Position numbers and translations under genes: made by a program. This document shows positions 12,327-64,000 of a DNA stretch of 64,000 nucleotides, one piece after another (position 1 is the stretch's first letter; the number at the start of each line of letters is the position of its first letter). Source of the stretch: a virus (lineage: Duplodnaviria > Caudoviricetes); the IMG/VR virus record IMGVR_UViG_3300027759_000085, positions 1,452-65,451 of that record; one strand, 5' to 3'. The notes under the pieces are model-generated. The model was not told the origin of the DNA and did no database searches. It worked only from the letters and a program-made list of their open reading frames with translations.

Positions 12327-12548
12327 ATGATGATTTACGAGCCAACTAATAGGCTTGAAGTAAGTACTCCTAAAGGTGATGGTGTAGTTTTTTATTTGAT
12401 TGACTACGGTCATGAATCAGATACTATCTACACCATTATCATTAACGATACTGGGGAGCTTTGGCAATTTACCAATCGTGACATTATAGTAAAACCTAAT
12501 ATAACATTTAGAAGATATGGCAAAGACACCAGCATGGACAAGATCTGA
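12327..12548 (+). CDS. conserved phage hypothetical protein
   Basis: TPKGDG..IDYG..TGELW..N pattern. Confidence 0.7.
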   Translation: MMIYEPTNRLEVSTPKGDGVVFYLIDYGHESDTIYTIIINDTGELWQFTNRDIIVKPNITFRRYGKDTSMDKI

Positions 12549-12789
12549 GGGCAAGGATCCAAAAGGAGGGCTCAATAAAAAAGGAGTCGCTTCATATCGT
12601 AAGGCTAATCCAGGAAGTAAGCTTAAAATGGCTGTAACTACTCCTCCTTCTAAACTTAAAGCAGGTAGTAAGGATGCTAATAGACGTAAGAGCTTCTGTG
12701 CTAGAATGTCTGGTGTTAAAGGCCCTGCTACCAAACCAAATGGTGAGCCTACAAGAAAAACTCTTGCTCTCCGTAAGTGGAACTGTTAA
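12517..12789 (+). CDS. DUF6321-like small basic protein
   Basis: AWTRSEGK..GGLN..RRKSFCARM..ALRKWNC. Confidence 0.8.
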   Translation: MAKTPAWTRSEGKDPKGGLNKKGVASYRKANPGSKLKMAVTTPPSKLKAGSKDANRRKSFCARMSGVKGPATKPNGEPTRKTLALRKWNC

Positions 12790-12975
12790 TTATGCCCAAC
12801 AGTAAACTATATAAGAGTTAATAGAACTTCTTCTTTTTTTATTGAGCATACGTTTTACATTCCTAGTTATATTTCTATTTTTTTTTTGTCTTTTTACACC
12901 CTTACATTGTTTACATCTACACACTATTACTTTGCTAGGTTCAGAGTCTTCTTCTATTTGTTTATAATACTTCAT
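12790..12975 (-). CDS. small basic Cys protein
   Basis: CRCKQC; lies downstream of the structured RNA. Confidence 0.55.
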   Translation of the reverse strand: MKYYKQIEEDSEPSKVIVCRCKQCKGVKRQKKNRNITRNVKRMLNKKRRSSINSYIVYCWA

Positions 12976-12979
12976 CTTA

Positions 12980-13396
12980 CTTAGATTGTATACCTACTCT
13001 AATCCCAGCAGTTCTATTAGACTCCCAAGTTCCTACATTTAAGTAGTTGATATTAATTAGTGCGTACCCCAGAACTGAATTAATCAGACAAGCCCATCTA
13101 TCAAACTTGTTTTCGTACCACCCCATTATTGTCTGCCTGCTGGTCAAGAGATTGATGTAGAATCCAATTGCTCTCACTTTGACTAATGGTTTATTAATAC
13201 CTTTATACTCATGTTTTTGATTGCTCTCACAAGCCTATGCTCTTCCCAGTAATAGAGTTCTGAACTGGGTAAGACCTAAAAAACCCTCTCCTGACGGTTG
13301 AGATTAAATAGGATGGTTGCAAGTTCTTATTTAAGGATTATAGATGTCAGTGAGAGGGTAATATCTTTATGACTATAATCGATATAAAAACTTGCA
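12980..13396 (-). ncRNA. putative large structured ncRNA or leader, copy 1
   Basis: Follows a TACATTTG promoter (13400-13407); interleaved stems; core homologous, with covariation, to 63916-63991. Confidence 0.6.
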
Positions 13397-13519
13397 CAAC
13401 AAATGTACGGATAATATTTAACAATTTCAATACCCAATAACTATTTTTAAATATATTTGTTATTGTCGTTCTATATACCTATATTTGAATTGTATTTTAA
13501 AAATAACATATATAAAAAA

Positions 13520-14238: not shown

Positions 14239-14490
14239 TTAAACCAATGCAGCGTTAGAAGCAGTAACAACAGCAGCAGGAGTAGCACTAGCCAAAATAG
14301 TTTTGCTTTGGAATAGGTTACCTACATTGTAGCTGTAGTCAATAGCTGATTGAACTCCAGAAGTTACAGTGTTAGCTACAACTCCTTGAATTCTGCTTAC
14401 GCTGATTACTTCAGCAGCAGAAGTATAAACACCTGCTTCGTTAGGATCTTCAGACTGGGTAAAAACATTTAAAGAAATAAGATTTGCCAT
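14239..14490 (-). CDS. small Ala/Val/Ser-rich protein, possible virion component
   Basis: Own TACTTTTG promoter (14530-14537) and terminator; GCT/AAC-rich codons like the capsid gene. Confidence 0.65.
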   Translation of the reverse strand: MANLISLNVFTQSEDPNEAGVYTSAAEVISVSRIQGVVANTVTSGVQSAIDYSYNVGNLFQSKTILASATPAAVVTASNAALV

Positions 14491-14545
14491 CTTTTTTTAG
14501 ATTTAAGGTTAATAAATAAATGAATGATACAAAAGTACATATTAT

Positions 14546-62080: not shown

Positions 62081-62178
62081 AGTCAGGTGGCGGAATCAGG
62101 TAGACGCTAAGTTAACAGACAGAAGGAGATGGAGAGGAATGGCTCGCCTTCATACAGGTTCAAATCCTGTCCTGACTA
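62081..62178 (+). tRNA. tRNA-like RNA (Leu-type D/T arms, no canonical anticodon arm)
   Basis: AGTCAGG/CCTGACT acceptor, GCGGAATCAGGTAGACGC D arm, ACAGG-TTCAAAT-CCTGT T arm; TATATTTG promoter at 62064. Confidence 0.65.
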
Positions 62179-63731: not shown

Positions 63732-63761
63732 AAAACTTAGTATTTAATTTGTATCTTTGCA

Positions 63762-64000
63762 CTATTGAGCTGAGGAGCTTGATAGATTTAAATTAGAGAT
63801 TACTTAATCATATAAGATAACCTCATCGTATCCAATTAGTATTCACAATAAGATGGTGATTACTTTAGCTCCTCAGCTGGATTAGATGGGGTTATTTTTG
63901 TTAGCTCCCACCTGATATTCACCTGTTCTACATCTCCTGTACAGGTAATAGCATAGGCTCGGAAGAGCAATCAAAAGCTAGGGAGTATAAATAAAATGTT
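63762..64000 (+). ncRNA. putative structured ncRNA or leader, copy 2 (truncated by window end)
   Basis: TATCTTTG promoter at 63752; interleaved stems; core homologous to 13202-13275. Confidence 0.6.

Follow-up and report, generated by a model that had tools for sequence, protein, structure and literature searches.

Attenuation leaders that act through a pre-emptor or an anti-terminator are known from riboswitch expression platforms and from the countertranscript-driven attenuation of pT181 and pIP501. Phages also carry RNA decoys, namely the RNA anti-CRISPRs (Racrs) and pseudo-ToxI, and the Rfam family HEARO (HNH Endonuclease-Associated RNA and open reading frame, ORF) is the omega-RNA of IscB. 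To our knowledge, large conserved RNAs with many covarying helices are nearly always ribozymes, ribonucleoprotein scaffolds or sophisticated sensors, and new RNA classes of such size are now seldom found. GOLLD and ROOL, as outlined in PMC12286853, are large ornate non-coding RNAs (ncRNAs) that often occur in phages and prophages. Here, we analyzed a 64,000-nucleotide stretch of phage DNA (the window), which covers bases 1452–65451 of the 65,451-base virus record IMGVR_UViG_3300027759_000085 and contains two related loci, copy 1 near 13 kb on the minus strand and copy 2 at the far end on the plus strand. We propose that both loci are genes of an undescribed family of phage ncRNA, a stand-alone accessory RNA with attenuator-gated output, and we put the probability of this reading at roughly 0.55.

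Each element consists of a promoter-like motif, a leader of about 110–190 nt across the family (about 120 nt in copy 1) and a body of about 330 nt. The body comprises a bulged hairpin (P1), a near-invariant AGCAUAG, a 4-bp GNRA hairpin (P2), the strand AAUCAAAA and long-range closing helices, which bring the two ends of the body together. The initial annotation had described two loci on opposite strands that share a promoter, a bulged stem, a GNRA hairpin and linkers, and every motif it quoted was found where it had been placed. In copy 1, P1 reads UCUU-A-CCCAGU...ACUGGG-AAGA (13241–13274, minus strand; read from the sequence) and is followed by AGCAUAG, P2 (GCUU-GUGA-GAGC) and AAUCAAAAAC, in DNA form AATCAAAAAC (13213–13241, minus strand); GAGTATAAA ends at 13202 on the same strand. 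In copy 2, P1 reads TATT-C-ACCTGT...ACAGGT-AATA (63916–63950, plus strand), the core consists of AGCAUAG, GCUC-GGAA-GAGC and AAUCAAAAGC (63950–63978, plus strand), and GAGTATAAA lies at 63983–63991 (plus strand), with the first bases of the 3′ domain reaching 64000. The location given for copy 2, 63.76–64 kb, proved right; copy 2 is not a second isolated fragment, as it continues at the start of the record. Bases 1–141 of the record (L002 1–141) repeat window positions 63860–64000 at 96% identity, and the remainder of copy 2 occupies L002 142–391, followed by a 142-aa HNH-like ORF at L002 392–820 (plus strand). The continuation is deduced from this overlap of the record ends and from the related contig L005, in which the end of a DnaA_C-like gene (likeness by eye), the promoter, the leader, the RNA and the 142-aa ORF follow one another uninterrupted. 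All differences within the 141-base overlap fall in its first 20 bases, the hypervariable leader stem, and differences between strains in this stem seem to have interrupted the assembly. Although its completeness was estimated at 59%, the genome is probably nearly complete, and either circular or terminally redundant.

Relatives were collected with a core pattern of 27 nt, made up of AGCATAG, 11 free bases and CAATCAAAA. This pattern matched 18 stretches of the viral collection, 10 of which showed the same flanking hairpins, and a slightly tighter version matched 18 metagenome stretches, 9 of them genuine; the other matches lacked the flanking hairpins and arose by chance. Since independent contigs with the same flanking hairpins were recovered in this way, the similarity of the two copies exceeds chance. 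The exact core matched three stretches among genome contigs, all by chance, and thus no prophage copy was found in that scan. A variable-gap version of the pattern gave at least 118 stretches, including 21 hairpin-forming inserts of a length other than 11 or 12, none with family context, and two relaxed half-patterns gave 53 and 88 stretches with a single, unrelated hairpin-former.

The genuine instances fall into four subgroups: A, the copy-2 type (the present record, L004, L005, L168, L174 and L177); B, the copy-1 type (the present copy and L178); C (L045 to L058, L169 and L180); and D (L166, L175 and L176). Comparison by nhmmer showed that C and D are homologous across the whole RNA (E = 8.7e-41) and that A and B are homologous over about 230–250 nt (E = 1.8e-10 and 4.4e-10). 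A search with the capsid-like protein encoded next to the group-C RNA yielded 207 relatives, of which 80 loci, with capsid-like genes 78–100% identical, were kept for analysis. The RNA was detected by nhmmer in 10 of these 80 loci; three of the ten are new variants, with a core that reads CAAACAAAA and, in one of them, also AGGAUAG. Patterns that include the changed half miss such CAAACAAAA/AGGATAG variants, and the count of about 30 instances is therefore a minimum. Searching with the HNH-like protein returned one relative locus and added nothing to the known set.

Covariation carries the case that the body is a structured RNA. P1 occurs in three unrelated sequences of one shape, CCCAGU/ACUGGG in copy 1, ACCUGU/ACAGGU in A and GGCUGA/UCAGCC in C and D. 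P2 occurs in five sequence variants among 26 instances, with all four pairs intact and all loops GNRA. For the 12 distinct RNAs of group C, RNAalifold predicted 104 pairs, and 96.7% of the cells pair. Changes on both sides were found at 14 of the 104 pairs, as against 4.1 ± 1.3 in shuffled alignments, none of which reached 14 in 500 trials, and a control with slid partners gave at most three such pairs. The invariant AGCAUAG of C and D has its pairing partner, CUAUGCU, about 290 nt further 3′; the next inward helix reads CGAGGGGG/CCCCCUCG in C and CAUAUCC/GGAUAUG in D, with CAAGGGGG/CCCCCUUG in L353. Several hairpins are swapped wholesale between C and D with stem length and loop size kept, for example a 5-bp stem with a 12-nt A-rich loop. 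The many G-U pairs are compatible with the stated strand only, which indicates an RNA rather than a DNA palindrome. A 66-aa ORF with a GTG start overlaps copy 1 (13177–12977, minus strand); its frame is open in copy 1 only, and the sense frames of the A, C and D bodies contain 4–13 stops each. Thus, the earlier proposal that compensatory changes preserve the bulged stem agrees with the enlarged family, and of the outcomes named in advance as refuting, neither a lack of covariation among homologs nor conservation of the 66-aa ORF in place of the pairings was seen.

The 3′ domain of copy 1 (12976–13212, minus strand) contains about 235 nt of helices. The pairings CAGACAA/TTGTCTG and CAGTTCT/AGAACTG and a second GTGAGAGCAAT are all present 3′ of the core, together with a hairpin at 13180–13145 that contains a second GUGAGAGCAAU, a long-range helix formed by CCAGCAG (13143–13137) and CUGCUGG (13011–13005), and the hairpin CUAC-UUAAAU-GUAG at 13046–13033. 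The 3′ segment repeats the 5′ core (GGGAUUAGAGUAGG..CAAUCUAAG), and the body ends at about 12976, immediately ahead of a 61-aa ORF. For the 3′ domains of A and B, more than one secondary structure can be drawn, as several candidate helices overlap (CAGACAA/UUGUCUG, ACAAG/CUUGU, CAAGUUU/GAACUUG and CAGUUCU/AGAACUG). Based on position and short shared motifs, the 3′-domain helices of copy 1 may be equivalent to those of groups C and D; the motifs common to A/B and C/D bodies are a UUAAAU-loop hairpin (B and C), GGGGUAC, GGGAG and a AGGUGCAAU-like stretch.

All subgroups share one leader layout: the motif TAnnTTTG, which we take to be the Bacteroidota −7 type promoter consensus, a segment A located 3–13 nt after it, a segment B, a loop containing A′, a segment B′ and a run of 5–9 U. 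One sense-strand TAnnTTTG is present per element, and none is present antisense inside it. In copy 1, the promoter-like TACATTTG (13400–13407, minus strand; read from the sequence) is the sole sense-strand TAnnTTTG and lies at −166 relative to the core. It is followed on the minus strand by A, UGCAAGUUUUUAU (13384–13396), at the 5′ end of the predicted transcript, which forms 13 bp with A′, AUAAGAACUUGCA (13318–13330), within the loop of the B–B′ hairpin. Segment B (13346–13359) is the 5′ strand of this terminator-like hairpin, in which ACCCUCUC(ACUGAC) pairs with (GUCAG)GAGAGGGU, and B′, GUCAGGAGAGGG, is followed by U6 (13278–13295, the U-run being 13283–13278). In copy 2, on the plus strand, the promoter-like TATCTTTG (63752–63759) has the same position in L005, L004, L168, L174 and L177. 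Its segment A, AGCUGAGGAGCU (63768–63779), is the exact complement of A′ (63867–63878), and these are the only two matches of that sequence within the window. Segment B, AAGAUAACCUCAUCGUAUCC (63815–63834), pairs in the minimum-energy fold with B′, GGAUUAGAUGGGGUUA plus the U-run (63879–63899), which A′ abuts. A further segment C, GUUAGCUCCCACCUGA (63900–63915), could pair back onto B′, which would leave the U-run in a loop.

A U-run of 5–9 follows a stem of 6–15 bp in 19 of the 20 distinct leaders listed, the exception being L054, where the script picked the wrong run; the copy-2 leader of the present record stands outside these 20 and was assessed by its fold. In group C, B–B′ with its U-run was called terminator-like by a terminator finder. 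Copies 1 and 2 were not called, their loops measuring 51 and 44 nt against the 8-nt limit of the tool. The complementarity of segment A covers the terminator loop and, in C and D, part of a stem strand as well; in these two subgroups A is located in the loop of a 5′ hairpin, and the A–A′ contact can be read as a kissing-loop pair.

The sequences of A and A′ are fully replaced between close relatives with their complementarity kept. Five forms were found in subgroup A, including AGCUGAGGAGCU, AGCUUCCGAGGUUC, AGCUUCCUAGGUUC and UUGUUUCAUGCAAGAUU, and two in subgroup B, the second being UGCAAAGUUU/AGACUUUGCA of L178. In subgroup D, AGGCAGGUUGU stands against AGUCCCGAUU, and two contigs with near-identical bodies have AGGCAGG/CCUGCCU and AGUCCCGAU/AUCGGGACU, respectively. 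Among the relatives of copy 2, B–B′ spans 13–15 bp, with CAUC/GGUG replaced by CACC/GGUG in L005. In the loop–loop helix of group C, 97.2% of the cells pair and double changes occur at 2 of 6 pairs.

Five leaders were folded, and all gave better energies than shuffled sequences, with z scores of −4.1, −4.9, −1.8, −2.2 and −4.5. The minimum-energy fold of the copy 1 leader contains A–A′ (z = −4.13), that of the copy 2 leader contains B–B′ (z = −4.86), and 0 of 200 shuffles was as good in either case. Overall, the minimum-energy fold was the A–A′ (read-through) form in two of the five leaders and the terminator (stop) form in three, with similar energies, which is the split that a bistable element would give. 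B′ is also able to pair with the segment just after the U-run, as in the minimum-energy fold of the copy 2 continuation and in group C, whose consensus has a helix of 14–23 with 107–115; the pairing of B′ with the segment after the U-run was read by eye. Taken together, these features suggest that the leader would be a terminator/anti-terminator or kissing-loop device. Within the window, the leader segments and the complement of AAUCAAAA gave no further meaningful matches.

As in known attenuation leaders, an upstream segment pairs with part of a terminator-like hairpin followed by a U-run, and two folds compete. In contrast to them, the 5′ segment here partners the terminator loop in a kissing-loop-like geometry, and the elements showed no conserved aptamer, leader peptide or antisense promoter. 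Moreover, the large conserved domain follows the terminator instead of preceding it, and the interior of the leader shows no conservation within a subgroup or from one subgroup to another.

No known RNA family accounts for these elements, in line with the initial annotation, which could not match them to any. Scanning the whole window with Rfam 15 (4227 models) at the gathering score returned only a tRNA model at 62081–62178. At E ≤ 10, copy 1, L005 (full A-type) and L053 (group C) gave best same-strand scores of 16–24 bits against thresholds of 41–120, and these sub-threshold matches were scattered over unrelated families, several of them on the wrong strand. Three representatives had no blastn match among 50,697 GenBank phage records, tblastn of the group-C capsid-like protein found none among GenBank phages, and the family was not found in a full-text literature search. 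Identity with tRNA or tmRNA was rejected, as ARAGORN reported no cloverleaf or tRNA-like fold in the window or in L002, L053, L166, L327 and L331. We conclude that the RNA family is uncatalogued and not a known class. More than 10,000 unnamed candidate RNAs have been predicted from the same virus collection, as summarized in PMC10690425, and the family may already be among them without a name. As far as GOLLD and ROOL are outlined in the source cited above, they share with the present RNA a large structured form in phages, an unassigned function and their own transcription signals. They differ in that their models gave no match, and here the body is smaller (about 330 nt), the carriers are Flavobacteriia-type phages and an attenuator leader is present.

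In group C, a terminator precedes the element, and the proximal promoter-like sequence that belongs to the capsid-like gene follows it; this sequence is kept with or without the cassette. Of 66 regions upstream of the capsid-like gene, 38 contained no cassette, 9 the RNA, 7 an L327-type and 7 an L331-type sequence, and 5 were singletons with ORFs. One of these singletons holds an N6/N4 DNA methylase (L367 732–1046; Pfam E = 4e-16), and the equivalent position in L371, L345, L379 and L381 holds protein genes with no family match. Cassette presence differs even among phages with 96–99% identical capsid-like genes. What lies downstream of the RNA also depends on the subgroup: A has an HNH-like gene, B the 61-aa ORF, C the capsid-like gene and D a PAS/HisKA-like gene. 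Neither the 61-aa ORF nor the HNH-like one is a constant partner of the RNA. In a relative of the present phage, a DNA contig joins 12788 to 12989, so that the 61-aa ORF is gone and the RNA is kept (run X2, single contig, depth 4). The RNA differs from those of relatives in DNA runs at 6 of 505 and 9 of 347 letters (1–3%), compared with 8–17% for neighbouring coding DNA. The unrelated downstream genes and the cassette-free relatives led us to regard the element as a stand-alone accessory gene. An ORF upstream of the group-C RNA was considered as a partner and rejected; it is near full length in 2 of 10 RNA loci and weak or partial in 2 more and in one RNA-free locus.

Cassettes of the L327 and L331 types share this hot spot upstream of the capsid-like gene, at seven loci each. 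They are about 450 nt long, located at about 900–1400 on the minus strand, opposite to the RNA, and had no Rfam match at the gathering score. Both types have the promoter motif TATATTTG and a 5′ segment that pairs with the terminator loop, with covarying pairs GUGCAG/CUGCAC, CUUGCGG/CCGCAAG and CGAGCGG/CCGCUCG in their leaders. L380 combines the leader of one cassette type with the body of the other, and L380 and L389 have one leader and different bodies, which suggests that leaders and bodies undergo modular exchange. Like Racrs and pseudo-ToxI, the RNA is an accessory, individually promoted phage RNA, and its locus holds a counter-defence-type gene, the DNA methylase, in relatives. Unlike them, it resembles neither CRISPR repeats nor tandem antitoxin repeats and exceeds them by far in size and degree of structure, and a decoy role is hypothetical here.

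Two known systems that bring together structured RNAs and HNH genes were also compared with subgroup A. The 142-aa ORF behind the A-type copies has an N-terminal CxxC pair and weak matches to HNH endonuclease PHROGs (E = 1.2e-5 and 6.5e-4), with no Pfam match at E ≤ 0.1 and no RuvC or other IscB domain found; it may be a free-standing homing endonuclease that aids the spread of the cassette. The arrangement resembles HEARO in that an HNH-motif ORF directly follows a structured RNA a few hundred nucleotides long. However, the HEARO model was unmatched, the 142-aa protein downstream gave only these weak HNH matches, and subgroups B, C and D have no HNH gene; identity with HEARO or IscB omega-RNA was therefore rejected. 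Group I introns with HNH genes are likewise phage RNAs with GNRA loops, long-range helices and presence/absence polymorphism, and the HNH ORF on the 3′ side in subgroup A adds to the likeness. In contrast to introns, the RNA lies outside any gene, in an intergenic position with its own promoter and without joinable flanking exons. A group I intron was rejected, as Intron_gpI had no match at E ≤ 10 and copy 1 stands alone on the minus strand among plus-strand genes.

If the elements are stand-alone RNA genes, host RNA polymerase would start at the Bacteroidota-type promoter, and the 5′ segment would compete with or kiss the terminator. The balance between the two would set the share of transcripts that stop after the leader or continue into the body. 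The folded body would then act as RNA itself on a host or phage factor, for which it may serve as decoy, sponge, scaffold or catalyst while the phage takes over its host or counters the host's defences, and would not be a switch for the gene behind it. A role in counter-defence or takeover is plausible because the accessory-locus context is typical of genes with such roles.

Several observations weigh against this reading. The folding energy of the whole RNA is no better than that of shuffled sequences (copy 1, z = −0.21; copy 2 continuation, z = −1.11), and the case for a structured RNA therefore rests on covariation and not on thermodynamics. The closing helix of two group-C variants is interrupted by single mismatches, diversity within subgroups is low, and the score of the group-C loop–loop helix was reached by 18 of 500 shuffles, which makes its statistics modest. 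By nhmmer, C matched A in the core alone (E = 2.3e-4) and did not match B, so that what would link the A/B bodies to the C/D bodies is the 27-nt core, a common arrangement of the parts and a handful of short motifs. Judged by sequence, the 5′ segment could either prevent or help termination, and it is solely the context that makes a trans-acting role plausible. Among the 24 listed runs with part of the stretch, one was RNA (X24), with contigs in 13 of 30 bins; it has no contig over 12790–13480, which is uninformative either way. Finally, the search for intrinsic terminators detected none where the body ends on its 3′ side, and in A and B an ORF starts 20–25 nt past the last helix; for these two reasons the RNA could be a 5′ untranslated leader.

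This last point underlies the main alternative, in which the RNA is a cis-acting 5′ leader, either riboswitch-like or a protein-binding untranslated region, that controls read-through and translation of the following ORF. The terminator-type switch in the leader would fit such a role, as would the A/B 3′ end, which repeats the 5′ core including an A-rich stretch ahead of the ATG, together with the nearby start codon and the lack of a detected terminator between the RNA and the next ORF. However, the terminator lies upstream of the large domain, which therefore cannot set it co-transcriptionally, and the genes downstream are unrelated. Furthermore, 70 of the 80 related phages have the capsid-like gene without the RNA and retain its promoter-like sequence, one relative has no ORF behind copy 1, and Rfam matched no ligand-aptamer family. 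We consider a cis-acting leader unlikely, albeit the strongest competitor. Still less support can be given to a protein-coding or DNA-level feature, that is, the 66-aa ORF, a binding site or a target of the HNH endonuclease. This idea could appeal to the overlap of the ORF with copy 1, to the near-invariance of the 27-nt core as DNA and to the HNH-like gene after A-type copies, but it is largely refuted by an ORF open in a single copy, by the covarying hairpin between the invariant strands with the many one-strand G-U pairs, and by subgroups B, C and D, which have no HNH gene.

Two further explanations accept a functional RNA and assign it a different task. The body might be a new self-processing ribozyme that cleaves at or near its ends and thereby frees a defined RNA or trims the downstream mRNA. 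Its size, the near-invariant AGCAUAG and AAUCAAAA, the GNRA loop, the conserved internal loops and the closing helices that join the ends would suit a ribozyme, as would the higher conservation of the RNA than of the flanking genes. Nevertheless, no Rfam ribozyme matched at E ≤ 10 and no catalytic-core motif was recognized; general resemblance is the sole basis for this idea, which we regard as improbable. More improbable again is a pre-primer or origin RNA, a promoter-driven structured transcript that would start phage DNA replication from a persistent hybrid, at a frequency set by the leader. Copy 2 is located where a replication module with Rad52-like and DnaA_C-like genes ends, copy 1 has a DUF3127/SSB-like gene as its neighbour, and the hypervariable complementary leader segments resemble, from general knowledge, the specificity of plasmid copy control. 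Against it, the group-C cassette has structural genes on both sides, and 70 of 80 close relatives do without it, which is unlike an essential origin; the RNA and the DNA downstream of it showed no covariation, and the elements contain no antisense promoters. A stand-alone accessory RNA thus remains our preferred reading. Beyond it, we tentatively suggest, as a broader and more doubtful possibility, that these are modular phage 'RNA morons', in which a portable promoter and kissing-loop attenuator are combined with different large bodies and exchanged between unrelated Flavobacteriia-type phages. The 330-nt body would then be a new functional RNA class, a ribozyme or a decoy or sponge directed against host defence or a takeover target, and not a gene-specific regulator.

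The surroundings of the two copies and the affiliation of the phage were also recorded. Copy 1 is the sole minus-strand unit inside a 50-kb plus-strand block, the other end of which is closed by copy 2. The 61-aa ORF directly behind copy 1 (12790–12975, minus strand) encodes a basic CxCxxC protein with no Pfam match at the cut-off and no PHROG match, and its presence is optional. A contig of run X10 skips 12715–13058. Small basic proteins lie beside the RNA in two unrelated phage groups, DUF6321 at window 12517–12789 (plus strand) and DUF5754 at L053 961–1233 (plus strand), and by eye both have a common CAR-SG-P motif. For the large terminase of the present phage, the cultured relatives were only Flavobacteriaceae phages (86 of 89 records), namely phages of Flavobacterium, Cellulophaga, Tenacibaculum and Maribacter, with a best identity of about 26% and all below 60%. 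Metatranscriptome run X24 has a single contig of 100% identity to the stretch, at window 14251–14507, over a minus-strand ORF at 14239–14490, which may be highly expressed. The match to the tRNA model mentioned above lies on the plus strand and scores 35.9 bits over 98 nt; ARAGORN reports no tRNA there or elsewhere in the window, and the sequence may be an odd or intron-bearing tRNA-like gene.

The family is small, with about 30 instances, and its significance should be read with this caveat. The RNA is carried by uncultured freshwater phages of Flavobacteriia type, and it comes and goes between near-identical phages. Its leader, in which the 5′ end would recognise its own terminator loop by a sequence that changes freely yet remains complementary, may be a simple, portable device for setting RNA dosage. 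The locus that the RNA has in common with a DNA methylase and two other RNA cassettes suggests that RNA genes are traded in the same way as anti-defence proteins. If this is true, the family would make host takeover or counter-defence by RNA accessible to experiment in Bacteroidota.

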